Shown here: in pieces, positions 1 to 55,860 of the stretch | Layout: each line of letters starts with the position of its first letter | How positions within the stretch are numbered: position 1 is the stretch's first letter | From: an uncultured delta proteobacterium | GTDB taxonomy: Bacteria > Desulfobacterota > Syntrophia > Syntrophales > UBA5619 | Assembly (NCBI GenBank): GCA_963817385.1 | Contig: CAWFOM010000010.1 | Span: forward strand, 352,001-416,000 | Length of the DNA stretch: 64,000 nucleotides | Direction: 5' to 3' | The notes under the pieces: generated by a model | What the model saw: only the letters and a program-made list of their open reading frames with translations | What the model was told of the DNA's origin: nothing | Databases searched by the model: none | Made by a program: the position numbers and the translations under genes

Positions 1-2
1 GG

Positions 3-1178
3 ATGGCGGCCCTCGCGTCGTTCATCGCGGGGACCTTTGCGGTCCTGATGCTGACCTTCATCGCGCCCATGCTGGCCAATTATGCGGTTTCATTCGGGCC
101 GCCGGAGTATTTCACCCTGACCTTCATGGGCCTCACGATGGTGACCTCACTGGGGGGCGACTCGCCGCTCAAGGGGATCATCAGCGGGGTTTTGGGGTTG
201 ATCGTCGCCTGCGTCGGGATCGACGCGATCAGCGGCGTCGCCCGGTTCACCTTCGACAGCATGTACCTCCTCGACGGCGTCGGGTTCATCGGGATGGCGG
301 TGGGGCTCTTTGCCGCCTCGGAGGTCCTGGTGAACATCGAGGCGCCGATGCAGCAGATCTTCACGGAGGCGAAGCTGAACTTCCTGAGCCTCTTTCCGAA
401 CCTCCAGGACTGGAAGGATTCATTCGGGGCGATCTGGCGAGGATCGATCATCGGCTTTTTCGTGGGGGTCCTCCCCGGGGCGGGGGCAACGATCGCCTCG
501 TTCATGGCCTACGCGGTCGAAAAGAGGATGAGCAAGCACCCGGAGAAGTTCGGGACTGGGGTCATCGAGGGGGTGGCGGCGCCGGAGGGGGCGAACAACT
601 CGGCGGCGGGCGGCGCGATGGTGCCGCTCCTGACACTGGGGATCCCCGGATCGGGGACGACGGCGGTCATGCTGGGGGCGCTGATGATTCACGGGCTCAG
701 ACCCGGGCCGCTCCTCTTTTCGACGCATCCCGACTTCGTCTGGGGGCTGATCGCCAGCATGTACATCGGCAACGTCATGCTTATCATCCAGAACATGCCG
801 ATGATCGGCCTGTGGGTGCGGCTGCTGAAGGTCCCCTACTCGGTCCTGATGCCGCTGATCATCACGATCTCGGCGGTCGGCGTCTTCGCGACGGACAACA
901 ACGTCTTCGACATGTGGGTGATGTTTGTCTTCGGCGTAATCGGCTATGTGATGCGGAAGCTCGATTATCCGCCGGCGCCGATGGTCCTGGCCTTGGTCCT
1001 GGGGCCGATGGTGGAGATGTCGCTGCGCCAGTCGCTCACCATCTCGCACGGGAGCATGGCGATCTTCTTCACCCGCCCCATCTCGGGTACGCTGGCGATC
1101 TTCGCTCTCCTCTCCCTCTTCGCCCCCCTCTTCCGGATCCTCTGGATCAGGTACAAGGCGGGAAGGGCGGCGGCGTAG
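3..1178 (+). CDS. tctA: Tripartite tricarboxylate transporter large permease (TctA family), 5' truncated by the window edge
   Basis: Very hydrophobic; family motifs GVLPGAGATIASF, GVAAPEGANN, PLLTLGIPGS, PGPLLF. Confidence 0.93.
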   Translation: MAALASFIAGTFAVLMLTFIAPMLANYAVSFGPPEYFTLTFMGLTMVTSLGGDSPLKGIISGVLGLIVACVGIDAISGVARFTFDSMYLLDGVGFIGMAVGLFAASEVLVNIEAPMQQIFTEAKLNFLSLFPNLQDWKDSFGAIWRGSIIGFFVGVLPGAGATIASFMAYAVEKRMSKHPEKFGTGVIEGVAAPEGANNSAAGGAMVPLLTLGIPGSGTTAVMLGALMIHGLRPGPLLFSTHPDFVWGLIASMYIGNVMLIIQNMPMIGLWVRLLKVPYSVLMPLIITISAVGVFATDNNVFDMWVMFVFGVIGYVMRKLDYPPAPMVLALVLGPMVEMSLRQSLTISHGSMAIFFTRPISGTLAIFALLSLFAPLFRILWIRYKAGRAAA

Positions 1179-1245
1179 ACAACAAGCCGGATGGCGAGAG
1201 CGTTTTTTAGATTATGCCCCATAAATGATCGATGAGGAGTTGTTG

Positions 1246-1782
1246 ATGAAAGTAATCGGAGTTCATATGGAGCGCTGCACGGGTTGCAAGACCTGTGAGC
1301 TGTACTGCGGAGCGGAGCGGGGGAGCGAGGGAAAGACGCTGCTTGCGGCGGTCCGGGAGACCCCGGCGCCCCAGCCGCGGGTGCGGGTCGAGGGGGGGCG
1401 GGACGCCTGTTTTCCCCTGCAGTGCCGCCACTGCCTGCAGGCGCCGTGCCTCGACGCCTGCCTCACCGGGGCGCTGATCCGTGATCCCGCAAGCGGGATG
1501 GTGATCATCCGGGAGGATCTCTGTATCGGGTGCTGGACCTGTACGGCCTTCTGCCCCTACGGGGTGATCAGCCCCTCCCCGGAGCGGAAGATCGCGATCA
1601 AGTGCGACCGGTGCCTGTACATGGAGAAGCCGGTCTGCGTCGACGTCTGTCCGACGAAGGCGCTGGAGGTGGTCGAGATCGAGGCTCTCGAAGAGCTGCT
1701 CCGGGAGAAGCGGCGCAAAACCGCGCACGGGATGGCGGCGGCCGGGGGCGTTGGGTTGAGCCTTCTGGACCTGGGAAGATAA
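1246..1782 (+). CDS. 4Fe-4S dicluster electron-transfer protein (CooF/HydN-like)
   Basis: Four Cys groups CTGCKTCELYC, CRHCLQAPCLDAC, CIGCWTCTAFCP, KCDRC...CVDVCP; GAGGAG RBS before ATG 1246. Confidence 0.88.
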   Translation: MKVIGVHMERCTGCKTCELYCGAERGSEGKTLLAAVRETPAPQPRVRVEGGRDACFPLQCRHCLQAPCLDACLTGALIRDPASGMVIIREDLCIGCWTCTAFCPYGVISPSPERKIAIKCDRCLYMEKPVCVDVCPTKALEVVEIEALEELLREKRRKTAHGMAAAGGVGLSLLDLGR

Positions 1783-1826
1783 ACGAGCATACATAAAATC
1801 GAATAGTCGGGGAGTTAAAGAAGCTT

Positions 1827-3279
1827 ATGGAAACAATTCATTTCAAGACGGTGGACCCGGTGAGCCAGGATCTGCTCCGCGGGGCGTCTCAGAAGGGGCT
1901 TTCTCTCAACTGGGAGAGGTATGAAAAACAGCAGCCGCAGGACGGTTTTCTGCGCCTGGGGCTCTCGTGCCCGTACGGGTGCATGCAGGGACCCTGCCGG
2001 ATCGATCCGTACGGACGGGGAGCGGACCGGGGGATCTGCGGGCTGGACCGGGACGCGATGGCCGCGGCGTTCCTGCTTCGCCTGACCCTCCAGGGGGTGC
2101 TGGAGACGATGCACGCCTATCCGGCGGGTGACGCGGGGAGATCGCCTGGCCGGCGCCGCTCGACAAACCGGCTGCGGCGGCCCTGGCGGCAGCCGGCGGG
2201 GGGCCTCGTCTCCACCGGGGAGATAGCGGCGAGCGCGGTCATGCTGGCGCGACCTTCGGCGACCCCGGAGGAGCTGGTCCGTCAGGCCGTCCGGCTGGGT
2301 CTTCTCGGGATCGGCATCGCGGAAGCGGGCAGGAAATCGGGACAATCCTCCGGGTCCCGGGGATGCCGGGTCGGTTACGGCCTCCTCGCCGGAGAGGCGA
2401 TCACGATCGGCCTGGCCGGGCGGGTTCCGGCGGCGCAGGTTGAGGCGCTCCTGAAGGCCGGCGGGAAGAAGCCGGACGTGCGGCTGGTATCGCTCGGGGA
2501 GTGGCTCCCCGCCGGGGAGGGGTTTCTTCCCATCGTCTGCACGTCGGGCGAGGCGGAGACCGTCCTGAGCTCGGGGAAGATTAACCTCCTTCTGGTGGGT
2601 CCCCAGTGCGATCCGGGCATCCCGGCCCTCTGCGCACGGATGAAGGTGCCGGTTCTCATGAGCTCCGACAACCCCGCTGCGGCGGCGGTTCTCAAGCAGG
2701 CCCGGGCGGCGTTCGAAGGCCGGGGTCCCTCCTCCTTCTCCCCCGATGCAGCCCTGATCGGGGAAGGACGCGTGAGCATCGGCGAGCGCGAGATCCAGGC
2801 GGCCCTGAAGGACGGCCCTTCGGCGAAGATCGCCCTGATCGGCGGCGCGGACACCCTCCTGCAGTCTCTCGGCCACCTTCCCGTGGAGCTGGCCAAGGCG
2901 CTCCGCGGCGAGGCGCTTGCGGTCGCCTCCTGGGGCGATGCCGCCCTCTGGATGCTCAAAGCAGGAGCTTCCCGTCGGGATCCTGGAGGCGGAGGAAGGG
3001 CCGATGACCGCGGTCAGGACACTGGCGAAGGCCGGAAAGCTTTCGGCAATCAAGGGGATCTGCTTCACGGGTCTCAGGGACTGCCGGGAGTTCACGCGGG
3101 CCCTGGGGCTCGCCGCACTCGGGCTGAAGGTTTCTCTCGCCGTGCCCGTTCCCCTCTGGGGGAGCGAGAAGGTCCGCACGGCGCTTCGGGAGAGCCTGGC
3201 GGCCGCGGGCGGGATCCTGGCCCATTTTGACCACCCGGCCCAGGGGGAAGAGCTCCTGGAGTGGTTCCTCCGGGCGTGA
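1827..3279 (+). CDS. Degenerate Ni-CODH (CooS/prismane-fold) homologue; frameshift near 2960 and a probable compensating indel pair at about 2135-2200
   Basis: N-terminus matches CooS (WERYEKQQPQ...CMQGPCRIDPYG...RGICG). C-terminus in the second frame matches the CooS tail (VPVPLWGSEKV...GG). Most D- and C-cluster ligands are absent. Confidence 0.8.
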
Positions 3280-3302
3280 TGGAAAGGATGAGGAGCATCT
3301 CC

Positions 3303-4554
3303 ATGCAATGTATCATCGTTGGCGGCGGCGTCGCCGGTTTTCAGGCCGCCGCGACCTGCCGGGCGATATGGCCCGAGCGGGCCGTGACCCTGATCGACGC
3401 CGAGAGTGAATGCGGATATTACCGGACGCTCCTGCCCCAGTTCATGGTGGGGGCGCTCCCGGAAGAGAAGCTCTTCTTCCGGCGGGAGGGGAATGACCCG
3501 CTCCTGAAAGTACGAACCGGCGTCCGGGTGAAGAAGCTGGATCGCAGCGGCTCCCGGCTCATTTTGGCCGATGGGGAGGAGATCCCCTACGACCGCCTGA
3601 TCCTCGCCCACGGCGGGGATCCGTACCTGCCCGGCATCCTCGCCGGTCCGCCCGCGAAGGGGATCTTTCCCGTCCGCGACCTGACGACGGCGCGGGCGGC
3701 GAAGGCGTGGCTTGCCGATCACCGGCAGGTGATCGTCTTCGGCGGCTCGCTCGTCGGGGTAAAGACGGCGGTTCATCTGCGGCAGGCGGGGTTCGACGTC
3801 TCGCTTATCGTCAGGCGGGGCCATATTCTCCTGCGCGCCCTCTCTCCGGAAGCGGCTCAGGTCGTCGAGGCGCATCTCGAAGGATTTGGGGGTTCGCCTG
3901 GTTGTCGATGCGCCCCTGGAGGATATCCGCATCGAGCAGGGGGCGATCGCGGCCCTCAAGGCGGGGGGTCAGTGGATCGCCTGCGACACCCTGCTCGTGG
4001 CGGCCGGAACCGCGCCCGACACGGCGTTTCTGGAGGGGACGGGCCTTCTGACGGAGGGTGAGCTCGTCGTCTCCCCGGCGCTGCAGACGGCCGATCCGCG
4101 GATCTTCGCCGCGGGCGATGTGGCCGTGATAGCCGGCGCGGCCGGGGAGAAGATCAGCCCGAACACCTGGCCGCAGGCCGTCTCGCAGGGGAGGACGGCG
4201 GCGGAGAATCTCTACCGGAAGACGCCCCTGCCCCATCGCGACCGGACACGGATCAATGCGATGGAGCTCCATGGTCTGGCCATGGTCATCCTCGGCCCCC
4301 CGGTTGACGGGGCGGAGGTGATCTCGTATGCGAGACCCGAGGAGCGTGTCCGGCGCGAGCTCTTCCTCAGGGGAGGAAAGCCGGTGGGAGGCGCGCTGAT
4401 CGGCGACATCTCGGCCGCCGGAACGCTCCGCGCCCTGATCAATGCCGGGCGGGAGATCACCCCCGGGGACGCCGCGCTCCTCAAGCCCCTGACGAGGAGC
4501 GTCATCCGTTTTCCCGAACACGCGGGCCGCAGGCAGGCCCTGATTCTTTCCTAA
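3303..4554 (+). CDS. FAD-dependent NAD(P)H oxidoreductase (NirB-N/CoA-disulfide reductase-like); frameshift near 3884
   Basis: IIVGGGVAG, YDRLILAHG, second Rossmann VFGGSLVG, TADPRIFAAGDVA; the two frames join after one extra base is removed. Confidence 0.85.
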
Positions 4555-4569
4555 CATGAGGTTACGTCT

Positions 4570-5295
4570 ATGATGATTCTTGAAGAGAAATGTGTGGGCT
4601 GCGGCCGTTGCCAGCCCTACTGTCCCACCGCCGCGATCAGATATGACGGGCTGAAAAGCGCAATCGACCAGGATGTCTGCTATGAATGCAGCACCTGCCT
4701 GCGCGCCGCGCACTGCCCGGTCGACGCCATCGCGGAATCGCCCAATGTGTACGACTACCCCCGGGCGCTGCGCCGCTATTTCAGCGATCCCAGTGCGACG
4801 CACGCGGCCACCGGCATCCAGGGCCGCGGAACCGAGGAGTCCAAGACGAACGATGTCACCCTCCGCGTCGGTCCCGGCGAGGTCGGCGTCGCCATCGAGA
4901 TCGGCCGGCCCACACTCGGGATGTCGATTCTGGACATCCAGAAGATCTCCCGGGCGATCGCCCGCGCCGGCGTCCACAAGATCGAGGCGCACAACCCGAT
5001 CCACTCCATGATCGCCGACGAGGCGACGGGGGATCTCAAGCCGGAGATGCTCGGGGAACGGGTGCTCTCGGCGATCATCGAGATCAAGGTGAAGCGGGAT
5101 CAGCTCCGCGGCATCCTCCGGACACTCAAGGAGGTCGCCAAGGAGGTGGACAGCGTCTTCTGCATCGACGCCTGCACCATCGTCGAGCCGGGGCTCACGA
5201 TCCCGGAGGAGGTCCTGGAGAGCATCCGGGCGGAGGGGTTAACCTGGCGGCCGAACGCCAAGATCAACATGGGCCTCGGACGGGCCTGGGAATAA
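4570..5295 (+). CDS. 2x[4Fe-4S] ferredoxin-domain protein with an uncharacterised C-terminal domain
   Basis: CVGCGRCQPYCP and CYECSTCLRAAHCP; motif GRGTEESKTNDVT; GAGG RBS. Confidence 0.85.
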   Translation: MMILEEKCVGCGRCQPYCPTAAIRYDGLKSAIDQDVCYECSTCLRAAHCPVDAIAESPNVYDYPRALRRYFSDPSATHAATGIQGRGTEESKTNDVTLRVGPGEVGVAIEIGRPTLGMSILDIQKISRAIARAGVHKIEAHNPIHSMIADEATGDLKPEMLGERVLSAIIEIKVKRDQLRGILRTLKEVAKEVDSVFCIDACTIVEPGLTIPEEVLESIRAEGLTWRPNAKINMGLGRAWE

Positions 5296-5305
5296 GGATA
5301 CAATC

Positions 5306-5957
5306 ATGACTCACAGTTTGCACAGGGAAGGCAGCCGGGAATCGCTGGAGAAGGACTATGTCCTGTTCATCTACCCGGCGAGGGGATTCAACTACAAGGG
5401 GAGCGCCCCGAAGGTTCGTCATATGGTCGAGCTGCTCTATCAGGCCGGTCCGGTCAACATGATCCCGACGTCACTTGCGCCGCAACATGTACAGCGGGGT
5501 GACGAACGAGGAGATCCTCGACAGCATTACCGTCGAGGGGACGCGCGTCTACTCCGTCTTCAACGACCGGGAGAAGCTCAAGAAGGCGGTGATCTTGCTC
5601 AAGGAGGCGAACGAGGGGATCTCCGTCATGGTCAGCGGGCTCACCGACCGCGTCCGGGAGCTCGCCGCGGAGTGCGGCATCACCCCCCACATGATCAACC
5701 TGTCGCTCGGCATCCACGGGCGGACGGACCGCCTGCCGCCGGCGGACATCCGGGAGTTCACGACGATGTGCGGCCACGGCGTCGTCTCGCCCTACCTGGT
5801 CAAGGATATGATCCGCCGGGTCAAGACGGGCAAGGTCAGCGAATGGGACGGAAGCGTGCTCCTCGCGGAGCCCTGCACGTGCGGCATCTACAACCCGTGC
5901 CGTTCGGCGGAACTGCTCCGGGAAAAATCGCCTCTCTACACGATCGACCGCTTGTAG
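5306..5957 (+). CDS. Conserved hypothetical protein with TMCGHG and CxCG motifs; frameshift near 5474
   Basis: ORF 5306 frame joins ORF 5475..5957 after one extra base is removed; AAGGA RBS; 10 bp after the previous gene. Confidence 0.75.
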
Positions 5958-5973
5958 CGGCGGGAGGATCCGG

Positions 5974-6863
5974 ATGAAGCTGGGATTTATCGGTTTCGGG
6001 GGCGCGGGCTACGGCCTGGCCAAAGGGCTCAAACAGGCGGGGCTCGAAGAGCTCCATTTCCACGACCGCATGCAGGAGACGCCGCCCTACGCGGAGGTGA
6101 TCGAACGGCACGCCGCCGAGACGGGCGCAGTCCGGGCGTCTAACCGTCCGTGAGCTTCTCGACCGCGTGGAGGTCGTGATCTCCTGCGTCACGGGTGCGA
6201 TGGCGATCGAAGTGGCGCGTGAGGCGGCGCCCTTCCTCAGGGCCGGCCACCTCTACGCGGATGTCAATACCGCATCGCCGCACGTCAAGGAGACCGTTGC
6301 CGGGATCGTCGAGACGGCAGGGGGGCTCTTTGCCGACGCGGCGATGATGGGGGCGATTCCGGCCTTCCTCCACCGGGTGCCGATCCTCGCCTCGGGATCC
6401 GGAGCCGCGCGCTTCCTGGAATTGATGCAGCCGTACGGGATGAACATCCGGGTGATCGGCGAGAAGCCAGGCCAGGCCTCCGCCATCAAGATGTTCCGCA
6501 GCATCTTCATGAAGGGTCTCCTCTCACTTTTTCTCGAGATGCTGACCGCGACACACCGCTACGGCGTCGATGAGATGGTCCTTGCGTCCATCGCCGAGTC
6601 GCTGGACGGGACGCCCTTCCGGGAGACCGCGCGGCGTGCAGATGACCAAGGGGACCGTCAACGCAGAGCGGATGGCCCACGAGATGGAGGAGGTGATCGC
6701 CACACTGGAGGAACTCGGCGTCCCTGCGGAGATGTCCCGGGCTTCCCGGGAAAAGCTCCTTTGGTGCGCTGGCTTCGGTCTGCGCGAGCGCTTCGGCGGC
6801 GAGCTGCCGTCCACCCTCGCGGAGGTCCTCGGGGAGCTCGAACGAACACCGGCTAACAAATAA
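5974..6863 (+). CDS. NAD(P)-dependent oxidoreductase, 6PGD/3-hydroxyisobutyrate dehydrogenase-like with DUF1932-type C-terminus; frameshifts near 6142 and 6635
   Basis: ATG 5974 reads MKLGFIGFGGAGYGLAKGL (not in the ORF track); YADVNTASP, ASAIKMFRSIFMKG, HEMEEVIATLEELG; GGGAGG RBS. Confidence 0.82.
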
Positions 6864-7010: not shown

Positions 7011-7752
7011 ATGCAGGTTGATGCGCTCACGATCATGGTTCTCGCCATCCTTTTCGTCTCGACGCTGGTCCGCGCCGTCTTCGGTTTCGGAAACGCCCTG
7101 ATTGCTATGCCGCTCCTGGCCATGACCTCGATCGGCATGAAAACGGCATCGCCGCTTGTCGCCCTGATCGCAACTCTCCTGTCGCTCATGATTCTCTGGA
7201 AGGACTGGCGGATTATCGATTTCAAGTGCACCTGGAGGCTTCTGGCCGCCACCCTGCCGGGGACCCCCCTCGGACTCCTCCTCCTCAAGGGTCCTTATGA
7301 AAACACGGGCAAGATCATCCTCGCCCTCATCATCATCGGGTTTTCCCTTTACAGCCTATTCAGACCGCGGCTCATTGCGCTCACGCGCGAATGGACCGCA
7401 TATCCCTTCGGCTTTCTCGCCGGCATCCTGGGCGGCGCCTACAACTCCAACGGCCCTCCCATCGTGATCTACGGAACCATCCGCAGATGGCCGCCGGACT
7501 GCTTCCGGGCGAACCTCCAGGGCTACTTTTTCCCGGCAAATCTCATCATCATCACGGGGCATGGTCTGGGCGGTCTCTGGACACCAGCGGTCGGATGGTA
7601 TTTTCTCCTCGCACTGCCGGCGATCCTGCTTGTCCATGTGGGTCGGAAACCGCCTCAACCGCATAATCCCCCCGGGACATTTCGAGCGATATATCCACAT
7701 CCTCCTGATCCTGATCGGCGCTTTGCTCCTCATCCAGACAATTACGGCCTGA
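7011..7752 (+). CDS. Sulfite exporter TauE/SafE (TSUP) family protein; frameshift near 7632
   Basis: Hydrophobic; GFGNALIAMPLL and GILGGAYNSNGPP motifs; C-terminus in ORF 7561..7752. Confidence 0.85.
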
Positions 7753-7765
7753 AGCCCTCGGCGAC

Positions 7766-8644
7766 CTACCTCCCTTCTCTCCCGCCCGGAGCGTCTCCCG
7801 GCATGAGAGTCGTCACGGATGCGGCCGCCTCGCCATTTTCCGCCGCACGGGGGTTCACGGCGCCCTCCCCGGGCGGCGGCTCTCCCCCTGCTCCTCCCTG
7901 ATCCGTGCCGGCAGAGGCGGGTTCGTTCATCATCTCCTCAAAATCGGGGATGACGATCCCGCGCCGGACCATGATGCGGTAGATCGCTTCCGCCCTCTTC
8001 TCCACATAACTGCCTCCGCCGACGGGACGGTACCTAAGCGGGCTGGGCAGGACTACGGCCAGGAGTGCCGCCTCTCGTGCCGTCAGGTCGGCGGCGCTTT
8101 TCCCGAAGTAGTGTCGTGCGGCGGCTGCGATCCCGAAGATGCCGTCCCCCCACTCGGCAACGTTCAGGTAGATCTCGATGATCCGCCTCTTGGAAAGATT
8201 CCTCTCCAGACGCCATGTCAGAATCGCCTCCTTGAGCTTCCGAACCGGACTCCTCGAAGGAGTCAAATAGAGGTTCTTCACAAGCTGCTGGCTGATCGTG
8301 CTTCCCCCTGCCTGGAATTTTCGCTTCTTGAGGTCCTTCTCGAGGGCCTTCTGGATCGCTTCGAAATCGAACCCTTCATGGACCCAAAACTTGTCATCCT
8401 CGGCGATGATGACCGCTTTGAGAACATAGGGGGAAATTCTCGCAAGCGGCACCCACTCCTGGAGGATCCTCTTGCGAATCCCTTCCCGCTGCCACTGCCG
8501 TTCCCGGTACTCCATGAAGGCGGTTTTTGTCGGTCGCTCCTGCTTGAGCCGGGAGACGTTCGGATGGACGAGATAAACGACGATCGGCGATATAAAAACG
8601 ACCGAGATCAGGATGACGATAAAAGCTGCCCATCTCTTTCCCAT
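7766..8644 (-). CDS. mtgA: Monofunctional peptidoglycan transglycosylase
   Basis: N-terminal TM helix; GT51 motifs EDDKF, GGSTISQQLVKNL, RKLKE, IYLNVAEWG. Confidence 0.93.
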   Translation of the reverse strand: MGKRWAAFIVILISVVFISPIVVYLVHPNVSRLKQERPTKTAFMEYRERQWQREGIRKRILQEWVPLARISPYVLKAVIIAEDDKFWVHEGFDFEAIQKALEKDLKKRKFQAGGSTISQQLVKNLYLTPSRSPVRKLKEAILTWRLERNLSKRRIIEIYLNVAEWGDGIFGIAAAARHYFGKSAADLTAREAALLAVVLPSPLRYRPVGGGSYVEKRAEAIYRIMVRRGIVIPDFEEMMNEPASAGTDQGGAGGEPPPGEGAVNPRAAENGEAAASVTTLMPGDAPGGREGR

Positions 8645-8944
8645 ATTTTCAAACCCCTGCGCTGATATCCGACCGGACCGGACATCACGGAACCATACCC
8701 TATTTTTTATCCGTTGGAAAGGAGAGGTGGAAATCACCCTTGAGCATACGCTTCAGGATGAAGACGATCTTCTCGCTGCAGCAAATTAATGATACTTCTC
8801 CGAGGATCGCTGTCGGTGAGCCGATTATGGTGGAAAATACTGATCATTTCCAGTATGAACATGCCAAGCGGGCAGTGAGCGGTCACGAGGATATCGGACC
8901 TCAAAATCGACGGTCCCCGATGCCACTTTTCCTTTTTCGTCAGG

Positions 8945-18326: not shown

Positions 18327-19085
18327 ATGGATCTCACACAACTGATCATCATCTTCGGCGCCAGTTTGATCTGTAGCACCTTTGGAACACTGGTTGGCGG
18401 AAGTAGCCTGATCACAATCCCGCTTCTGATTCTGATGGGCCTTCCACCCCATACAGCCATCGGCACGGACAGATTGGGAACCACCGGGATCGGGCTGGCA
18501 GGCCTTTATTCTTTTCATCGCAAGGGGATGATGCGCTACCGTCTGGCCTTTATCGTCGGCATTCCTTGTCTTCTCGGAGGCTTCATCGGGGCTAACCTCG
18601 CACTTCAGATCAGCCCCGAACTCCTAAAGAAGTTCATCGTGGCACTGACGGTTGTCCTGCTGATTGTTGTGGTGGCCAATCCGAGGTTGGGGGTTGTGGC
18701 GGTGGCAACGAAGCGTCCCCTAACCACCGGAAGATACATTTTAGGTGCCTTTTTGAGCCTCCTCGCGGGCATCTATGGCGGCTTTTACGGGGCCGGAATG
18801 GGGACGTTCATGTCCTACATCATGATCCTCGTTTTTTGTCAGACCTTTCTGGAAAGCGCCGCCAATACGAAGGTTGCCGGGATCATGATGAGCGTTACTT
18901 CGGCGGCTACCTACGCCTATCACGGCGCCATCCATCTTCCTCTGGCCTTGGTCATGTTTGCCGGTTCCTGCATCGGCTCGTACATGAGCGCCCAATATTC
19001 CGACCGGATCGGAAACGTCTGGATCAAGCGAATCTTCATCGTGGTAGTCTTGATCATGGCGGTGAAGCTGCTGATGGATGCCTAG
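18327..19085 (+). CDS. Sulfite exporter TauE/SafE (TSUP) family protein
   Basis: GGSSLITIPLLILMGLPPHTAIGT and GIYGGFYGAGMGT motifs. Confidence 0.9.
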   Translation: MDLTQLIIIFGASLICSTFGTLVGGSSLITIPLLILMGLPPHTAIGTDRLGTTGIGLAGLYSFHRKGMMRYRLAFIVGIPCLLGGFIGANLALQISPELLKKFIVALTVVLLIVVVANPRLGVVAVATKRPLTTGRYILGAFLSLLAGIYGGFYGAGMGTFMSYIMILVFCQTFLESAANTKVAGIMMSVTSAATYAYHGAIHLPLALVMFAGSCIGSYMSAQYSDRIGNVWIKRIFIVVVLIMAVKLLMDA

Positions 19086-27970: not shown

Positions 27971-29903
27971 ATGAAGAGGCATCAGGTCATTTTTCAGCCC
28001 TCCGGCAGGCGTGGCGAGATTCCGGAAGGAACAACCATCCTTGAGGCTGCACAGTCACTGGGTGTCGGTATCGAATCGCTCTGCGGGGGAAACGGAAGCT
28101 GCGGAAAGTGCCGTATCAGGATCGAGTCGGGAACCTTCGAGCGGTACGGTATTACCTCGCTTTCCGACCATCTCTCGCCGTTCACCGAAGAGGAGGGTGC
28201 CTTCATCAGCGACAAAGAACGGGCGGAAGGTTTCCGTCTGGCCTGCAACGCCATGATCCGGGGGGATCTCCTCATCGTCGTACCCGAAGAGAGTCGCACC
28301 GGCAGGCAGGTGGTGAGAAAAGAGGCCACAAAACGAGCCATCTCCCTGAATCCGGCGATTCGGCTCTTCCCCGTGAAGCTCGATCCCCCCAGTCTGAGCC
28401 GGCCGCTGGGCGACTACGACCGTCTGGTTGCCGCGCTCGGGGAGCGCTTCGGCATCCCCCGTCCTGCGATCGACTATCCCGCCCTGCGTGCAGCTCCCCG
28501 GCGTCCTCAGGCAGGGGAACTGGCACGTTACCGCGGCCCTCTGGATGGAGCGGGAAATCCTCGCCGTTTTTCCGGGAGAGGTGACGGAGGCGTACGGCCT
28601 CGCCGTCGACGTAGGCACGACCACCGTGGTCGGTTATCTGTGCAGCCTCAGGACCGGTGATGTCATCGCCACCGAATCGCTCATGAATCCCCAAGTCGCC
28701 TACGGCGAGGATGTCATTGCCCGGATCACCTATGCGACTGGACCACCCTTCCGTCGGTCTGGAGAAGCTCAAGGGGGTGATCATCGACTGCTCTGAACCG
28801 ACTCATCCGGGGCGTGACGGCCCAAGCGGGCCTCTCCCCCGCCGATATCCTCGAAGTGACGATGGTCGGAAACACCGTCATGCACCACCTCCTCCTCGGA
28901 ATCGATCCCCGCTACCTGGGGGTCTCACCCTTCACACCGGCCCTCCACCGTTCACTCGACATCAAGGCGCGCGACCTCGGTCTTACGACCCATCCCGCCG
29001 CCAACGTCCACCTGCTTCCCGATCGAGGCGGGCTTCGTCGGGGCCGACAACGTGGGGGTTCTGATCGCGGAGGAGCCCTACCGCCGCGAGGAGATGGTCC
29101 TCATCATCGACGTGGGCACGAACGGCGAGATGATCATGGGAAACCGTGCAAGGCTCCTCTCGGCTTCCTGCGCCACCGGCCCGGCCCTGGAGGGGGCGCA
29201 TATCCGTTTCGGGATGAGGGCCGCCCCCGGGGCGATCGAGCGGATCCGGATCGATCCCGCGACGCGGGAGGTCGCCTTCAAGATCATCGGCGAGGAGCGC
29301 TGGCGGCCGGAGAGCCCGATCACCGGCGCCCGGGGGATCTGCGGCTCCGGGATCATCGACGGGGTGGCCGAACTCTACCGGGCGGGGATCATCGAAAAAA
29401 GCGGCCGCTTCCGGACGGATCTCGCCACGCCGCGTCTTCGGATGAACGACGGCAAGCCGGAGTTCGTCATCGCCTGGCGGGAAGAGACCTCCCTGAACGA
29501 GGAGATCACGATCGGCCAGCAGGATGTCCGGAGCGTGCAGCTTGCCAAAGGCGCCCTCTACACGGGCGCCAAACTGATGATGAAACGCCTGGGGATCGCG
29601 AAGCTGGACCGGGTGATCCTCGCCGGCGCATTCGGGAGCTATATCGACAAGACGGCGGCGATGCGTCTCGGCATGTTTCCCGACTGCAACCTCGAAGGGG
29701 TCTCATCGGTCGGCAACGCGGCGGGCGACGGGGCACGGATCGCTCTCCTCGATCGAGAGAAGCGGGGAGAGGCCGAGACGATCGCCCGGCGGGTGGAATA
29801 TCTCGAGTTGACCACCGAGAAGGATTTCCAGCAGGAGTTCCTGGCGTCCCTGGCTATCCCCCACGAGAGGGACGCCTTCCCCCATCTTCCGCCTTCCGAA
29901 TGA
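27971..29903 (+). CDS. 2Fe-2S/ASKHA-domain protein (RACo/AcsV-type corrinoid activator family); four frameshifts at about 28490, 28737, 28792 and 29021
   Basis: CGGNGSCGKC...RLAC; AVDVGTTTV; GFVGAD; IDVGTNGE; CATGPALEG; GICGSG; LAGAFGSYID; GNAAG. Confidence 0.88.
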
Positions 29904-29908
29904 TTATT

Positions 29909-31486
29909 CTACAGATCGTTCCCTGAATAGGAAAGGTTGAAGCTTTTATTGATGAGGGGAAAATCGGGAACGACGTTTCCGACGGCCGCATAACCCAGGG
30001 CGGTCCAGTTCAGGAAGGAAGGATCGCGAACGGAAACGCGGCTGACATCTCCGTGAGCATCGGTCGCAATCAGGTATACGACGTCTCCGCGCCAGCCTTC
30101 CACGATACCGACGGCGTAGGCATTCTTTCTGAATTCATGGACGCACGGCACGTTGACGTCACCCCGTGGCGGCAGATTCCTGAGCGCCCTCCGAATCAGC
30201 CCGATCGAAGAATGGACCTCTTTGACGCGCACGGTGAACCGTGCGTAGACATCGCCGCCATGCTCCGTGGCAACGTCAAGGGGCAGCTTATCATACGCGG
30301 CGTAGGGGTAATCAACCCGCGCGTCGGCGGAAAAACCGACCGCTTTTCCGGCAACGCCGATGACCCCGTGATCACGGGCGGTGCGTGCCTCCAGAATTCC
30401 CGTATTTTTCAGGCGGTTCAGCAGGGAATTGCTATCCAGCGCTACTTCCATGACCTCGGAAAAATCCTTGCGCAATCCTTCCAGTTCCGCATCCAGGCGT
30501 GCGGCAATTTCCGGCGTGATTTCTTCGGATCTCACGCCGCCGATTGTGTTGACTCCCCGCAGAAAACGACTCCCGGTCAGGCGATCGTTCATCTGCATGA
30601 CGATCTCCCGCAAGCGCGCACCGTGAGCTCCGCCGAAGTTGAATCCCGTATCGGTCATGATGGCGCCGATATCCCCCAGGTGGTTGGCAAGTCTCTCAAG
30701 TTCGCAGAAAATGACCCTGAGCCAGCCTGCTTTCTCTCCCGCAGGCGTGTCGGATAATGACTCCAGCGCCAGACAGAAGGCCAGGGAGTGGCTGTACGAG
30801 CTGTCACCGGAAACCCGCTCCGCCAGTTTGATCTTTTCCTGAAGCGGCAGGATTTCGAACAGTTTCTCGATGCCCTTATGGGAATACCCGAGCCTCGGCT
30901 CAAGAAAGAGGATCTCCTCTCCGGCAACGCTGAACCGGAAATGGCCGGGTTCGATAATACCCGCGTGCACCGGCCCGACCGGTATTTCGTATATCCCCTC
31001 ACCGTCCATCTTCCGGAACGGAAATATGCCTGAAGCGAGGGGAGGCCTCGAATTCCAGGCAAAATCTTTCCGCAGGGGAAAGCTATTCTCCGGCCAGTTT
31101 TCATGGAGAATAATGGGTCTCGGATCCGGATGGCCCTGCGGAGTCAACCCGAAAAAGGACTTTATCTTCCTCTCATAGGTTGAGGCCTCATGGATCGAAG
31201 GGGTGAGCGACGGGAAATCCTCTTGTATCCGGATGAAGGGGGCCAGGAATATATTCTCTTTGGGGATGCCGAAGAGATACATGATCCGGAATGAACCGGT
31301 CGCTTCCCGTTCATCGAATGCGGTTATCGTCTTCAGAGGCAGACGATGGCGGCGATACAGCAGCTCACACGCCTGCACGATACCACCCGGCGGCAGCTCG
31401 TAGGCAAATAAATTGCCGTACTGCCGAACTGCCGTTTGCGGCGGGAGGTATTCTTCAATGCGGGTATTTCCAGTCATAGGGTTCAT
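29909..31486 (-). CDS. Ehr large subunit (HycE/NuoCD-like) without NiFe-binding motifs
   Basis: GPVHAGIIEPGHFRF; ERVSGD replaces RxCxxC; C-terminus DFPLINKSFNLSYSGNDL replaces DPCxxC. Confidence 0.9.
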   Translation of the reverse strand: MNPMTGNTRIEEYLPPQTAVRQYGNLFAYELPPGGIVQACELLYRRHRLPLKTITAFDEREATGSFRIMYLFGIPKENIFLAPFIRIQEDFPSLTPSIHEASTYERKIKSFFGLTPQGHPDPRPIILHENWPENSFPLRKDFAWNSRPPLASGIFPFRKMDGEGIYEIPVGPVHAGIIEPGHFRFSVAGEEILFLEPRLGYSHKGIEKLFEILPLQEKIKLAERVSGDSSYSHSLAFCLALESLSDTPAGEKAGWLRVIFCELERLANHLGDIGAIMTDTGFNFGGAHGARLREIVMQMNDRLTGSRFLRGVNTIGGVRSEEITPEIAARLDAELEGLRKDFSEVMEVALDSNSLLNRLKNTGILEARTARDHGVIGVAGKAVGFSADARVDYPYAAYDKLPLDVATEHGGDVYARFTVRVKEVHSSIGLIRRALRNLPPRGDVNVPCVHEFRKNAYAVGIVEGWRGDVVYLIATDAHGDVSRVSVRDPSFLNWTALGYAAVGNVVPDFPLINKSFNLSYSGNDL

Positions 31487-38986: not shown

Positions 38987-39913
38987 TTATTCATTCTCCG
39001 GTCTGGGCAACAGGCCGGCCGCTTTGACGATTTCCGCAACCTTTGACTCCCATTCTATCGCCATGATATGGATGCCCCGCACACCGGGAATCTCCCTGAG
39101 TTGCTGAATTTGCTCCACACAGATCTTTATCCCCTCCTCCGCCTGCTTCTCCTTCGGTACCCCCTTCATCCGCTCGATCATATCATCGGGGACGTCCATC
39201 CCCGGGACATTCTTCTTCATGTAATTGGCCATGCCCGCGGTCTTGAAGGGAGTCACTCCCGCCAGAACGGCGCATTTTTCATGAAGCCCCCGGTCACACA
39301 CCATCGCCATCCAACGTCTGAACCGCTCCATGTTGTAGATGCACTGCGTCTGGATAAACTCGCATCCGGCCTTTACCTTTTTCCCCAGCCTCGCCGCCCG
39401 GATCTCAAACGGATCGGCAAAGGGATTTTCCGCCGCCCCCACAAACAGCATCGGCTTCCCCTTTACCTCCTCGCCTCCCAGGAATTTCCCTTCGTCGCGC
39501 AGACGGCAGACTGTCCCGATCAACTGGATCGAATCGATGTCATATACGTTCTTCGCCTGCGCATGATCGCCGAACTTCTGATGATCGCCGGACAAACAGA
39601 GGACATTGTTTATCCCTAACGCCGCCGCCCCCAAGAGATCGCTTTGGAGCGCGATCCGGTTCCTGTCCCGGCAGACCATCTGGAGGACGGGCTCCAGTCC
39701 CATGCCCTTCAATATCACACTGGCGGACACCGAGGACATCCTCACCACCGCGGTCTGATTGTCCGTTACGTTCACCCCGTCGACAACACCCTTGAGCAAC
39801 TCCCCTTTCTTACGGACAGCCTCGGGATCGGACCCGCGCGGAGGACCGCACTCCGAGGTAACGACAAATCCCCCGTTCGCCAATATCTTCTCGATCTTCG
39901 AATTTGTCTTCAC
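38987..39913 (-). CDS. metF: Methylenetetrahydrofolate reductase MetF, copy 1
   Basis: NVTDNQTAVVRMSS, CRDRNRIALQSD, LSGDH, FIQTQ, IHIMAIEWE. Confidence 0.92.
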   Translation of the reverse strand: MKTNSKIEKILANGGFVVTSECGPPRGSDPEAVRKKGELLKGVVDGVNVTDNQTAVVRMSSVSASVILKGMGLEPVLQMVCRDRNRIALQSDLLGAAALGINNVLCLSGDHQKFGDHAQAKNVYDIDSIQLIGTVCRLRDEGKFLGGEEVKGKPMLFVGAAENPFADPFEIRAARLGKKVKAGCEFIQTQCIYNMERFRRWMAMVCDRGLHEKCAVLAGVTPFKTAGMANYMKKNVPGMDVPDDMIERMKGVPKEKQAEEGIKICVEQIQQLREIPGVRGIHIMAIEWESKVAEIVKAAGLLPRPENE

Positions 39914-40578
39914 AGTTTCAAGTCCTCCCTTATCCTTTTGCGCGGCCCGCCGTCACGACCGGTTCGCCAATCCCGTATCGGCAATATCTCATCGTATTGG
40001 TCCATCTGACCTGATTCCTTGAGCCGATCGACGATCAATTGCCAGGCGCAATCCGTTTCCTTATCGATCTCGCACTTGCCTTCCGACGAACCGCCGCACG
40101 GACCGTTGAGCAGGCTCTTTGCGCAGCGGGCAATCGGGCAGACCCCGGCCGTCATGTCCAGGATGCAGGTGCCGCAACCCTGACATCGCTCGCTCCATAC
40201 TCCCTGTTCGAGCGTCACCCCCAGAAAGGTCGTGTTGACGGCAGGAATGACCCGTTTTGTCTTATACGCTTCGGCCACATACTGAACGCCCGCACCGCAG
40301 GCCATCGATAAGATCACGTCGTAATTATCGGCAAAACTCCGTATCTGATCTATATATTCAAAGTCGCACTGGCGCTCCAAGGTGTGCTCCTTGATGTCGA
40401 AGGTCTCCCCTTCCTTTTGCCAGTAAAGACGGAGCTCCGAGGCCAGAACGCCCACTTCGCGCTCACCCCCGACGCCGCACACGGTCACGCACTCGTTACA
40501 CCCTACGATCAAGACCCGCCGACGGGCGCCCAGCTTCGCCACGATCTCCTGAAAGTCCTTGCGATTGCCGACTATCAT
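39910..40578 (-). CDS. metV: MetV (MTHFR Fe-S/Zn partner subunit), copy 1
   Basis: GCNECVTVC, RQC, CGAGVQ, CQGCGTC...CPIARCAKSLLNGPCGG...CAW; overlaps the metF start. Confidence 0.9.
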   Translation of the reverse strand: MIVGNRKDFQEIVAKLGARRRVLIVGCNECVTVCGVGGEREVGVLASELRLYWQKEGETFDIKEHTLERQCDFEYIDQIRSFADNYDVILSMACGAGVQYVAEAYKTKRVIPAVNTTFLGVTLEQGVWSERCQGCGTCILDMTAGVCPIARCAKSLLNGPCGGSSEGKCEIDKETDCAWQLIVDRLKESGQMDQYDEILPIRDWRTGRDGGPRKRIREDLKL

Positions 40579-40620
40579 GACTAAACCCCCACGAATGCAG
40601 CCACGGGTGACTGCCCTTTA

Positions 40621-41049
40621 TTATTTTTTTCTGGCGGGCGACGGTCCGAGGGAACGGATCCGTTCGGTCATCTCCCGTGCACATTCCGCAAATCGCTGGC
40701 CTTGAGAGGCGCTCATGTTGAACATCTCCAGCCTCGCCCCACCGATACCCACCTCGTCCAAGAGACCCTTCACATATTCAACCCGTCGCCGCGCCCGGAG
40801 ATTGCCGCGGAGGAAATGGCACTCGCCCTCCAGACATCCGGCCAGATACACTCCATCAACCCCGCTCTCAAAGGCCTTCAGTACCAGGAGGATATCCACG
40901 CGGCCGGTGCAGGGCATCTTCACTACCTTCACACTGCTGGGATAGCTCAATCTCATCGAACCTGCCAGGTCCGCAGCGCTGTAAGCTCAATGCTCACAGC
41001 AGAATGCGATAATCTCCGGCTCAAAACCGTTGTCCGTTTTCTCTGACAT
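40621..41049 (-). CDS. mvhD: Selenocysteine-containing MvhD/FlpD [2Fe-2S] subunit (in-frame UGA at 40989-40987)
   Basis: ATG 41049 reads MSEKTDNGFEPEIIAFCCEH-UGA-AYSAADLAGSMRLSYP...PCTGR...GCLEGECHF; the UGA aligns with the second Cys of the paralogue's LCNWCAYAGADLAG. Confidence 0.9.
40945..40986 (-). promoter_or_regulatory. Putative bacterial SECIS element
   Basis: Hairpin CGGACCU-GGC-AGGUUCG with a G-first apical loop about 21 nt after the UGA; lower stem GCUUA/UGAGC. Confidence 0.7.
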
Positions 41050-41178
41050 CGCCTTGTTCTCTCCCCGCTTGTCCTAACTCAGTACGAACTTCCGCACCGC
41101 TCGGCGGGCGCAGCAACCAGCCGCGCCTCGTCTCTCTTACGTGTGGGCTCTAACTTCCCGGCATTTTAGCATCGGGTA

Positions 41179-44100: not shown

Positions 44101-44220
44101 AAATCCTGCTTCGGCCAGATCAAGCGAGGCCTGCATCCCGCCGATCCCGCCGCCCACAACCATCACCGCACCGACCGGTTTTATCCCATTACCATTCGTC
44201 ATGCCGCCTGATGACCCCAT
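41179..44220 (-). CDS. hdrA: Tandem-type heterodisulfide reductase subunit A (two FAD modules); alternative start at 44202
   Basis: VVGGGIGG, LDKTFPTNDCAMC, CVGSRD..CSSVCC, CHCGINI, CSPRTHE, NIRDQCSWVH, second FAD module, C-terminal 2x[4Fe-4S]. Confidence 0.93.
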   Translation of the reverse strand: MGSSGGMTNGNGIKPVGAVMVVGGGIGGMQASLDLAEAGFYVYLVEHSPTIGGTMSQLDKTFPTNDCAMCIMSPKLVDSGRHRNIRIISNAEVREITGPPGSFEATIIRRPRYIRADKCTGCGECAKHCPVTAIDSYNEGMSKRAAIFLRYPQAIPKVFLIDREECIGCGLCERVCLAGAVDYGDKETEEKLSVGSVILAPGFEVFDAQRRPEFGYGVFPNVVTSIEFERILSATGPHRSHLLRPSDGAIPERIAFIQCVGSRDVKCGNDYCSSVCCMYALKEAVIAKEHVQFVKPTIFAMDVRAYGKGFDAYYERAKADYGVRLVKSMVSKVREKPGSGNLLVTYMNEERTSCEEEFDLVVLSLGMSTSPVVRNMAARLGVDLNRFGFCETGTFTPLATSREGVYVCGAFQSPKDIPETVAQASGAAAAATGMIASARGTLTTKKEYPPEEEVKPEAEARIGVFICHCGINIGGVVNVPAVKAYASTLPNVVHADENLYTCSQDTQEKIKNAVKEHRLNRVIVASCSPRTHEPMFRDTIREAGLNKFLFEMANIRDQCSWVHMRRKADATAKAKILVRMAVANVRLNRALGETEVPVVQRGLVIGGGVAGMTAALRLAEQGFEVYLVEKENRLGGNLLNIHTTIEGGDVQAFLRDLIDKVSGHPAIHCLLDSTVVDFSGVRGNFTTGVRTAPAMDYQKIQHGITILATGAQEEKPEGYLYGDDARVVTQLELEDRLAHRREELAGLREVVMIQCVGSRNEKRPSCSRTCCATAIKTALKLKKINPAITIRILYRDIRTYGFLETYYAQARKEGILFVRYEPEESPEVKKEGERLVISFEDKLVKEKMTVHPDLIVLASATIPRDNKELATLMKVPRTAEGFYLEAHMKLRPVDFASEGIYVTGSGHAPKLISESISQAHAVVARACTILSKENLLVGGVVAVVDGEHCAACLTCVRVCPYDVPVVNVRGEAEIDIIKCKGCGTCAAECPARAIDLMHYRGSQLEAKIAALVE

Positions 44221-44303
44221 GATGAGATTTCGTCCTTTATGTCAATTCCGGTCATTACAAGAGACCAAAATTCAAAGAAAATGAGCTCGATACGGCGGCA
44301 TGC

Positions 44304-49574: not shown

Positions 49575-49583
49575 GTCTTTCCC

Positions 49584-49601
49584 TTCGTCACTAGTGACGA
49601 A
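49584..49601. other. Perfect 18 bp palindrome TTCGTCACTAGTGACGAA
   Basis: Between the hdrB stop and the hdrL RBS. Confidence 0.8.
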
Positions 49602-49603
49602 TT

Positions 49604-52408: not shown

Positions 52409-52411
52409 TGC

Positions 52412-53722: not shown

Positions 53723-53785
53723 GGCCTTGTTTCCCGTTGTTGAGGGAAATAGTTTTCATAAACCGGGGAGTGTAAGGGAACAATC

Positions 53786-54193: not shown

Positions 54194-54237
54194 CGGGATA
54201 CTGCCTTCCTTTTTTCCACTTGAGGAGTGATGACGAA

Positions 54238-55829: not shown

Positions 55830-55860
55830 CGGGATATGATTTTTCACCCTCACGGGTAGA

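Follow-up and report, generated by a model that had tools for sequence, protein, structure and literature searches.

A conserved gene module in an uncultured Syntrophales bacterium, joining a carbon monoxide dehydrogenase-fold protein apparently without the canonical active site to two proteins without a family assignment

Gene clusters in which the polyferredoxin CooF, the nickel-dependent carbon monoxide dehydrogenase (Ni-CODH, or CODH) CooS and a FAD/NAD(P) oxidoreductase (FNOR) follow one another are regarded as putative CO:NAD(P)+ modules (Geelhoed, 2016; Whitham, 2015; both as cited in Inoue et al., 2019, PMC6344411), and no FNOR of this type had been studied biochemically according to the same survey (Inoue et al., 2019). 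The same three families, in the same order, are encoded at the beginning of a 64,000-nucleotide stretch of DNA from an uncultured delta proteobacterium of the Syntrophales (GenBank assembly GCA_963817385.1, contig CAWFOM010000010.1; C10:352001-416000 in our contig numbering), the whole of which we will refer to as the window. In this operon, nonetheless, the CooS-like protein, hereafter mini-CooS, is about 150 residues shorter than in the CO module and lacks the C-cluster, the catalytic His and Lys and one D-cluster Cys; furthermore, the module is always joined to the genes of a ferredoxin-domain protein (FdX) and of a protein named after its TMCGHG motif, and usually to a tripartite tricarboxylate transporter (TTT). 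The first 100 residues of mini-CooS are 45-48% identical to CooS proteins of 635 amino acids (aa) encoded between CooF and FNOR in Desulfosporosinus- and Desulfitobacterium-type genomes. The module is real and strongly conserved, and it is apparently undescribed: its two family-less components and its CODH-derived pseudoenzyme would be new, while a NAD(P)H-linked multi-cluster oxidoreductase is of a known kind.

Other unusual relatives of CooS have been reported. Thermosinus carboxydivorans carries a mini-CooS of clade G, 482 or 428 aa long and beside cooF (Techtmann, 2012, PMC3328121; Inoue, 2022, PMC8776680), whose G+C content lies about 10 points over that of its genome (PMC3328121; PMC8776680). 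According to these accounts, it shares with our family the position of a short CooS next to cooF and a high G+C content, the cooF-mini-CooS-FNOR core of the window (1225-4554) having 68% G+C versus 57% for the rest of the window. In a comparison made by published description, the Thermosinus protein has reportedly retained every one of the 11 Cys, and the His, in its B, C and D clusters, whereas the window family keeps two of the six C-cluster ligands. A search with a 423-aa CooS-like form from a Halanaerobiales genome (L076, described below) returned 12 proteins, only five of them of that length and without names; none was named Thermosinus. Clade D Ni-CODHs, such as ChCODH-V, reportedly have no CO/CO2 activity (Jeoung, 2022, as cited in 10.1101/2025.09.14.676152); they resemble mini-CooS as CODH folds thought not to interconvert CO and CO2, but they are full length and pass, as far as the surveys describe them, filters on cluster residues that the mini-CooS family would fail. 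Such filters excluded sequences under 550 aa or with deletions in cluster or catalytic residues (Inoue et al., 2019, PMC6344411), and a 2025-26 analysis of CODH contexts omitted clades G and H and required key clusters (10.1101/2025.09.14.676152). The mini-CooS family, with at least 479 sequence clusters, is apparently undescribed because Ni-CODH surveys drop short or cluster-residue-deficient sequences.

The accessible parts of four CODH papers (PMC3328121, PMC8776680, PMC6344411, 10.1101/2025.09.14.676152) do not mention a TTT transporter or an FdX-TMCGHG pair beside CooS. A literature search returned no description of the mini-CooS family or of the FdX-TMCGHG pair (supplementary tables might list such sequences), no paper combining carbon monoxide dehydrogenase, C-cluster and pseudoenzyme, and no published assignment of the module to a known pathway, which agrees with its treatment as a candidate for an undescribed system in a preliminary description of this DNA. 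Outside the CODH field, the nearest likeness is to PadH/PadI (NF045766 and NF045765 are the models of this pair, which serves NADH-dependent phenylglyoxylate dehydrogenase), where a flavoprotein and a polyferredoxin also link a catalytic iron-sulfur enzyme to NAD. PadI is within the top six NCBIfam matches for CooF (E 2e-19) and PadH is the best for FNOR; the scores are nonetheless far under the equivalog cut-offs (135 vs 475 bits; 70 vs 700), and the 2-oxoacid:ferredoxin oxidoreductase subunits of that system are absent from the window module. IspG and IspH, finally, hold a [4Fe-4S] cluster by three Cys and receive electrons from NADPH via a flavoprotein and a ferredoxin. They serve here as a working analogy only, for a site-differentiated cluster, no sequence or fold similarity to them having been found.

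The part of the operon that lies inside the window consists of seven genes on the + strand between positions 1 and 6863, separated by 46, 44, 19, 15, 10 and 16 bases; the tightly packed, co-oriented array of the preliminary description is thus confirmed, in the order it gave. The start of tctA lies 330 bases upstream of the window. The genes are as follows:

1..1178, + strand: tctA, large permease of the TTT (502 aa as a complete open reading frame, ORF, which matches Pfam TctA with E 4.8e-174)
1225..1782, + strand: CooF-like polyferredoxin, 185 aa, intact (Fer4_11, E 4.3e-18)
1827..3283, + strand: mini-CooS, CooS-like protein of the CODH fold, about 484 aa, frame-broken (hhalign to true CooS)
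3303..4554, + strand: FNOR, FAD/NAD(P) oxidoreductase of the pyridine-nucleotide-disulfide family, frame-broken (Pyr_redox_2 on both pieces)
4570..5295, + strand: FdX, ferredoxin-domain protein, 241 aa, intact (N-terminal 2x[4Fe-4S] domain)
5306..5957, + strand: TMCGHG protein, with TMCGHG and PCxCG motifs, frame-broken (216 aa in relatives)
5974..6863, + strand: NAD_binding_2 plus DUF1932 dehydrogenase of beta-hydroxyacid-dehydrogenase type, frame-broken

The arrangement is far beyond chance, the same order being found in at least 36 independent contigs. It is carried by a genome of 3.95 Mb in 31 contigs; with a completeness of 81.6% and a contamination of 2.4%, this is evidently a metagenome-assembled genome (MAG).

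The homology of mini-CooS to CooS along its whole length is, from the alignments, unambiguous. Twelve mini-CooS members (A1), 62-83% identical to the first, were compared with eleven true CooS proteins of 625-662 aa (A4, loci L051-L078), and hhalign joined the two families with a probability of 99.8% (E 1.6e-29) over 439 columns, residues 6-462 of mini-CooS. The CODH model TIGR01702, on the other hand, scores 57.9 bits vs a cut-off of 478 and covers residues 9-91 only, and Prismane (PF03063) scores 24.7-28 bits vs 27 at the N-terminus only. The four B-cluster cysteines (C48, C52, C57 and C71) are invariant in 12/12 members and align with C46, C49, C54 and C68 of true CooS. The first Cys of the D-cluster has become an invariant Asp39, and the second is Ser47 in nine of the 12 and Cys in three. 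For the C-cluster, we take the ligand positions to be the invariant Cys and His of the true-CooS alignment and number them in what is presumably the classical manner. Two of the six ligands are then retained, the equivalents of Cys295 (C239) and Cys526 (C413); among those lost, the His is replaced by R, Q or K, Cys333 varies, Cys446 has become G or A, and Cys476 an invariant Asp372. Opposite the AAHxDHA segment of true CooS, which bears the acid-base His, mini-CooS has a gap in the alignment, and the Lys-bearing segment is unaligned or absent.

Judged by these residues, mini-CooS is a CODH-fold protein without the canonical NiFe4S4 site and not a canonical CODH. The earlier claim that this CODH cannot be catalytic is upheld at sequence level by the C-cluster, which has lost four of its six ligands, by the missing acid-base His and Lys region, by the loss of one Cys from the D-cluster and by the low TIGR01702 score. 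The same description had noted the absence of the nickel insertase gene cooC, and indeed none occurs among the operon's genes, the rest of the genome not having been searched for it; in relatives, a CbiA/ParA-type match was seen in one of 72 neighbour ORFs scanned (L019). No sequence of this genome reaches the TIGR01702 cut-off. Among the family members listed, the full-length ones mostly have 476-494 aa and nearly all are nameless or ‘hypothetical’; the few labelled ones come from Syntrophus, Syntrophales and Thermodesulfobacteriota MAGs, and two bear the automatic name ‘carbon-monoxide dehydrogenase catalytic subunit’.

The flanking partners belong to more familiar families. The CooF-like protein adjoins mini-CooS, is 185 aa long and contains 16 Cys in four CxxCxxCxxxC-type motifs, which would be enough for four [4Fe-4S] clusters; its best NCBIfam matches (HydN, YgfT and PadI) are all below their cut-offs. 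Pyr_redox_2 (PF07992) matches the two FNOR pieces with E 1.7e-27 and 2.3e-14, at profile positions 1-195 and 197-291, and Pyr_redox with E 2.7e-08. In relatives, FNOR has about 419-422 aa, and its best NCBIfam model is PadH, with E 3e-39 on the intact L003 orthologue, below the cut-off. The dehydrogenase of the window matches DUF1932 on its last piece (E 3.2e-07); in relatives it has about 295-300 aa, and the intact L009 orthologue matches both NAD_binding_2 (6.5e-10) and DUF1932 (7.9e-14). An identity as 3-hydroxyisobutyrate dehydrogenase was considered and rejected, the HIBADH equivalog scoring 42 bits vs a cut-off of 292.

The conservation of the gene set was followed in one genome per species, which yielded 79 loci, neighbours being counted only where the contig reaches far enough. 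A long or full-length mini-CooS match is present in 49 of them (12 cut by a contig end), with labels of Syntrophales/Syntrophaceae/Smithellaceae, Desulfobulbaceae/Desulfocapsaceae, Desulfobacteraceae, Rhodospirillales and Acetobacteraceae MAGs; the other 30 match at the N-terminus only and are mostly true CooS proteins of 625-662 aa (one of 561 aa), together with the 423-aa form of L076. CooF lies directly upstream of mini-CooS in 41/41 loci and FNOR after it in 37/38 (the exception being L014), while FdX and the TMCGHG gene are found downstream in 37/37 and 36/36, respectively. The transporter gene tctA is within the locus in 30/37, the DUF1932 dehydrogenase in 16/36 evaluable loci, and a GntR regulator more than 40% identical to that of the window in 21/49. 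A second or third FdX-TMCGHG pair, 36-46% identical, follows in 17/35 loci. The co-occurrence of the set in other genomes, on which the preliminary description had made its case depend, was therefore recovered with a near-invariant core; what stood of the seven-gene set is CooF, mini-CooS, FNOR, FdX and TMCGHG, while the dehydrogenase and, to a lesser degree, the transporter proved variable companions. The G+C content of the core exceeds that of its flanks in 28/29 loci, by 4 points on average, and recent horizontal transfer was rejected as the cause, since an excess that recurs so regularly would seem to belong to the genes themselves.

FdX and the TMCGHG protein are the two components without annotation. 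FdX combines an N-terminal 2x[4Fe-4S] ferredoxin domain (8 Cys) with a Cys-free C-terminal alpha/beta domain, and has the invariant motifs PRxxR, SxP, GRGTxExKxN, GRP, NP and NxKxNxGLGR. In the TMCGHG protein, an N-terminus of the form M-T/S-x-x-L-H-R-x-G, His128, Cys155-Gly-His157 and Cys190-x-Cys192-Gly are invariant in paralogues down to 36% identity. Searches of Pfam and NCBIfam gave no match for the TMCGHG protein, and the best sequence-profile match in the PDB had E 0.12; for FdX, the ferredoxin domain alone was matched in Pfam, NCBIfam and PDB sequences, and the C-terminal domain was not. The TMCGHG family has at least 3415 database clusters, and the source names among those listed are all ‘hypothetical protein’; an ESM Atlas look-up likewise gave only nameless ‘hypothetical protein’ clusters. 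AlphaFold models of the single chains have a mean predicted local distance difference test (pLDDT) of 73.3 and 71.5, and both contain a ferredoxin-like alpha/beta domain without a specific structural relative. Foldseek found nothing in the PDB at E<=0.001 for the TMCGHG model, and wide VIA-align searches gave a best Z of 7.0 for it, with generic ferredoxin-like alpha/beta domains, and for FdX a Z of 7.9 for the ferredoxin domain and of at most 6.5 for generic alpha/beta matches to residues 100-205. Fold matches were consequently set aside as a functional lead, all being of this generic kind.

The two chains were also modelled as a complex. FdX and TMCGHG reached an interaction prediction score from aligned errors (ipSAE) of 0.92 in three runs vs 0.00 for the best of three controls; this mark is reached by 116/157 solved complexes and 2/215 mismatched pairs, a calibration that is approximate, since our own alignments were used. 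The three runs share at least 87% of their contacts, with a partner pLDDT of at least 89. The predicted interface comprises residues 15-19 and 40-46 of FdX, beside the cluster Cys, together with its invariant motifs at 86-97, 113-116 and 224-241, and on the TMCGHG side residues 1-8, 157-164 and 188-192, around the Cys/His motifs; some 280 predicted contacts join the cluster loops and invariant motifs of the one to the N-terminus and Cys/His motifs of the other. The modelling supports a heterodimer with a composite site beside the ferredoxin clusters, and these two proteins probably form a new enzyme.

The pair is also more widespread than its CooS-like companion. Among 401 sampled genomes of the phylum, mini-CooS was found in 15 (E<=1e-30) and TMCGHG in 47 (E<=1e-15), all 15 lying within the 47, with up to seven TMCGHG matches scored per genome. 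Of 16 TMCGHG loci examined from genomes without the 485-aa form, ten had no CooF- or CooS-like neighbour; the other six follow a second gene order, FdX-TMCGHG-FNOR-CooF-CooS-like, and their CooS-like protein has about 562-573 aa. The FdX-TMCGHG pair is autonomous and a wider unit than the CooS-linked module, and it also occurs without any CooS-like gene. Compared by eye, one of the six proteins of about 570 aa (L094, G216:C60, 4413-6101) has apparently lost neither the Lys nor any of the six C-cluster ligands, and the other five (L086, L087, L090, L100 and L101) keep about one ligand; as read from these residues, this orthologous group would be a living series of active-site decay. The 423-aa form of the Halanaerobiales MAG L076 retains the D and B clusters; at the C-cluster it has four Cys but neither the His nor the Cys295 equivalent, and its neighbours are FNOR, FdX, TMCGHG, TctC and TctA. 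These sequences suggest that the association of FdX-TMCGHG with the CooF/CooS/FNOR line is old, and that the CooS partner degenerated differently by lineage.

Seven TMCGHG matches were scored in the present genome, and a CooS-like gene of the 570-aa type lies near one of them on C5. The further TMCGHG sites are:

C5:253756-257987
C17:15420-16830 (L084)
C14:2119-3665 (L085)
C12:96084-96704
C18:6291-6902

The substrate class was approached through the genes recurring beside the module. The preliminary description had called for a reading of the DNA upstream of the window, and the adjoining 12 kb supplied the remaining transporter genes and a regulator, with which the operon begins and which are in the same orientation as tctA, so that PF01970, PF07331 and PF03401 are all matched on three consecutive ORFs of a TctABC system:

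L001 9194-9970, same orientation as tctA: GntR/FCD regulator (Pfam GntR 3.1e-20, FCD 5.6e-22)
L001 10097-11107, same orientation as tctA: tctC (Pfam TctC, PF03401, E 2.1e-41)
L001 11188-11649, same orientation as tctA: tctB (Pfam TctB, PF07331, E 5.5e-25)

A scan for promoters and terminators did not rise above shuffled sequence (1 vs 1.8 and 9 vs 6.6) and is uninformative on the limits of the operon. The genome as a whole has an unusually large TTT repertoire, blastn having matched tctA over nearly its full length (>1.2 kb) at another twenty places on 11 other contigs.

In relatives, 72 of 166 unassigned ORFs around 25 loci were scanned, chosen by nearness to the module. A xylose-isomerase-like TIM barrel is present in 12/25 loci, DHDPS/KdgD-type proteins in four, HpcH/GarL-type aldolases in two and PdxA-type dehydrogenases in two; a LarA-type protein (best NCBIfam match malate racemase, below cut-off) was found in one locus, and a 2-hydroxyacid dehydrogenase of glyoxylate/hydroxypyruvate reductase type in L076. 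In the present genome, the pairs on C17 and C14 adjoin tctCBA genes, LeuCD-type hydro-lyases lie beside the pairs on C4 and C17, and the C17 pair is also accompanied by two DHDPS-type genes and a TauE gene. Among the CooS-free pairs, those of L089 and L095 stand beside tripartite ATP-independent periplasmic (TRAP) transporters, class-V aminotransferases and GlcD/GlcF-type fusions, and those of L088 (6150-10253), L096 (4064-8387) and L097 (3687-11487) between a thiamine pyrophosphate (TPP) enzyme of oxalyl-CoA-decarboxylase/acetolactate-synthase type and family-III coenzyme A (CoA)-transferases, once with an aldehyde:ferredoxin oxidoreductase, a setting very different from that of the window. 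The common theme of these neighbours is small hydroxy- and oxo-carboxylates, and because of them a small hydroxy- or oxo-(di/tri)carboxylate is the likeliest substrate; their variety suggests many substrates for a diversified FdX-TMCGHG family.

On balance, and by a modest degree of confidence, we favour the reading that FdX-TMCGHG is an uncharacterised iron-sulfur oxidoreductase acting on an imported hydroxy- or oxo-carboxylate and connected to NAD(P)(H) by way of a scaffold derived from a CODH. A carboxylate would be imported by TctABC and sensed by the GntR/FCD regulator, and the operon would encode the iron-sulfur oxidoreductase that acts on it, an enzyme of several subunits linked to NAD(P)(H). 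The catalytic unit would be the heterodimer, to which FdX would give two [4Fe-4S] clusters and its alpha/beta domain, and TMCGHG the LHR motif and a Cys3/His site, probably a redox-active iron-sulfur or metal centre at the subunit interface. Electrons may pass from NAD(P)H to the flavin (FAD) of FNOR, the B-cluster of mini-CooS and the four clusters of CooF, and onward over the two FdX clusters to the Cys3/His centre of TMCGHG at the substrate site, the reverse being equally possible. Mini-CooS would descend from the CooS of a CO-oxidising CooF-CooS-FNOR module and, its NiFe4S4 cluster lost, would now be a pseudoenzyme, a scaffold or a wire, with a single [4Fe-4S] B-cluster. The ancestral CooS/CooF/FNOR module is our basis for placing mini-CooS and CooF in the chain, for the direction of flow and for the type of the TMCGHG centre; cluster binding by TMCGHG, the substrate class and the assembly-error status of the frameshifts discussed below are inferred as well. 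The preliminary description had proposed a repurposed electron conduit to the iron-sulfur pair for an imported acid, and the near-invariant five-gene linkage, the frequent TTT genes and the predicted heterodimer are in keeping with that proposal.

Several observations weigh against this reading. The single-chain models are only moderate, and the Cys-bearing part of TMCGHG is poorly modelled; its three Cys and His could hold zinc or another structural metal and not a redox cluster. The TPP enzyme and CoA-transferase contexts of L088, L096 and L097 point to CoA-thioester chemistry, and with neighbours that vary by lineage the substrates may be many. Mini-CooS is highly conserved, with a mean column identity of 75% over 12 members and with C239, D372, C413, H351, H467 and H470 invariant at or near former active-site positions, which would seem to exceed the needs of a passive scaffold. 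Finally, the long housekeeping genes secA (842 aa) and ileS (929 aa) are intact while operon genes are broken, and the window copy may be non-functional.

This last point concerns the state of the operon in this genome. Three-frame translation and comparison with intact relatives locate seven frame-breaking insertions that close four of the seven genes: +2 near 2132, +1 near 2208 and +1 near 2962 in mini-CooS, where the first two together garble about 25 codons; +1 near 3878 in FNOR, whose frame is continuous in relatives; +1 near 5475 in the TMCGHG gene; and +1 near both 6141 and 6636 in the dehydrogenase. Relatives are intact at every one of these sites. A second copy of cooF, mini-CooS, FNOR and FdX is present elsewhere in the genome, 95.6% identical over 4088 bases and broken at other places than the window copy:

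C4:59859-64762 (L083 7870-12748): second copy, its TMCGHG gene only 81.5% identical

That the operon is here a decaying pseudogene array, with seven real mutations in a copy out of use, is an unlikely explanation, though the strongest of the alternatives. It draws on seven frame-breaking events within 5 kb, set against the open secA and ileS, on the C4 copy being broken too, at different sites, and on the position of the insertions outside long homopolymers. The uninterrupted frames of secA (842 codons) and ileS (929 codons) show that the genome is not riddled with errors (these served as the frame-test genes, rpoB not having been found in this 81.6%-complete genome). On the other side, every frame-breaking length difference, when window positions 1214-6863 are compared with C4 and with contigs of relatives, is an insertion in the broken copy and never a deletion. 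In short-read contigs from four public runs, exactly one base fewer is found at 2958, 3878, 5475/5477, 6141 and 6636, the base at 3878 being absent in contigs of two runs and that at 5475/5477 in three; these contigs belong to relatives and not to this strain, the best public run holding a 0.10 fraction of the sampled words. The window and C4 copies differ by 45, 17 and 106 substitutions at codon positions 1, 2 and 3, a concentration at third positions that argues for recent coding constraint. Moreover, frame errors are not confined to the operon: elsewhere in the window, duplicated DNA contains a split RACo-like gene (27971-29923) and a split HdrA-like region (45258-47998), and upstream the genes of a flavodiiron protein and of an IorA-type indolepyruvate oxidoreductase subunit are split as well (L001 313-1516 and 2136-4083), a pattern that fits poor repeat consensus in a MAG. 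Because relatives are intact, the insertions are probably consensus errors in repeated DNA; conclusions at the level of the family are independent of this question. The insertion-only spectrum of the two copies is in itself odd, whether of error or of mutation.

The main rival at the level of the family, which we regard as rather improbable, holds that mini-CooS is itself the catalyst, with a new metal site formed from C-cluster remnants (Cys239, Cys413, Asp372, His351 and His467/His470), and that FdX-TMCGHG is a dedicated electron carrier or maturation pair. The strong conservation of the family and its invariant Cys, His and Asp at or near former ligand positions speak for it, as does L094, which seems to keep all six ligands and the Lys, so that some partners of FdX-TMCGHG may be active. 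Nonetheless, FdX-TMCGHG has no CooF- or CooS-like neighbour in 10/16 further loci, and 32 of the 47 TMCGHG genomes do not have the 485-aa form (E<=1e-30), some having the 570-aa form instead (6/16 loci). The ligands lost are not the same in the three CooS-like forms, contrary to what a single conserved new site would lead one to expect, and TMCGHG genes number up to seven or more per genome vs one or two CooS-like genes.

The permease gene that follows the operon suggests still another function for the favoured FdX-TMCGHG enzyme:

7011..7901, + strand: TauE/SafE-family anion permease (TauE E 1.4e-23), 147 bases downstream of the operon

With this gene exporting sulfite, FdX-TMCGHG would cleave a C-S bond in the degradation of organosulfonates, a proposal that we hold to be very improbable. 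TauE/SafE genes follow the operon here and in 6/49 loci, all of a Syntrophales-like group, and lie beside other pairs (C17, L094), but they are missing from most loci and belong to a broad permease family, and known sulfonate-pathway genes were not seen among the neighbours scanned; the gene is a loose, lineage-restricted companion of the operon. The TauE ORF, 296 codons long, runs into a convergent transglycosylase gene (7766-8737), and its 3' end may be frame-shifted as well. A second TauE/SafE gene lies at 18327-19082, less than 12 kb away. Hardly credible, lastly, is the idea of an ordinary module of CooF, CooS and FNOR in which CO oxidation yields NAD(P)H and the genes downstream are unrelated passengers: its gene order equals that of the module as given by Inoue et al. 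(2019, PMC6344411), and the nearest outgroup is a true 635-aa CooS with CooF and FNOR (L051-L080), but mini-CooS is without the catalytic His, the Lys region and four of the six C-cluster ligands, TIGR01702 reaches 57.9 vs 478 bits, the operon is without cooC, and the linkage to FdX-TMCGHG is seen in 36/36 loci and under two gene orders.

Elsewhere in the window, two divergent paralogous clusters at 38990-50452 (- strand) and 51371-58836 (+ strand) encode MetF/MetV-type methylene-tetrahydrofolate (THF) reductase, MvhD/FlpD, HdrA-like flavoproteins and CCG-domain proteins. Together with a formate-THF ligase at 61858-63642 and the RACo-like gene at 27971-29923, they are redox machinery of Wood-Ljungdahl type.

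A bolder form of the favoured reading, to which we give somewhat less than an even chance, is that FdX-TMCGHG is a new two-subunit class of iron-sulfur enzyme and that mini-CooS is the first recognised Ni-CODH turned into a dead one-cluster scaffold, with intermediate stages of the loss still extant. If this is true, the FdX-TMCGHG class is present in thousands of environmental genomes and has expanded to at least seven copies in some. Where mini-CooS is automatically named a CODH, CO metabolism would be predicted too often for MAGs of the Syntrophales, Desulfobulbales and Rhodospirillales. With a series from a near-complete to a fully degenerate CooS, it would be possible to test directly how a metalloenzyme evolves into a pseudoenzyme, and the FdX-TMCGHG family, with its at least 3415 clusters, is a good candidate for a reaction still missing from the anaerobic metabolism of organic acids, because it lies beside carboxylate transporters and hydroxy-acid enzymes.

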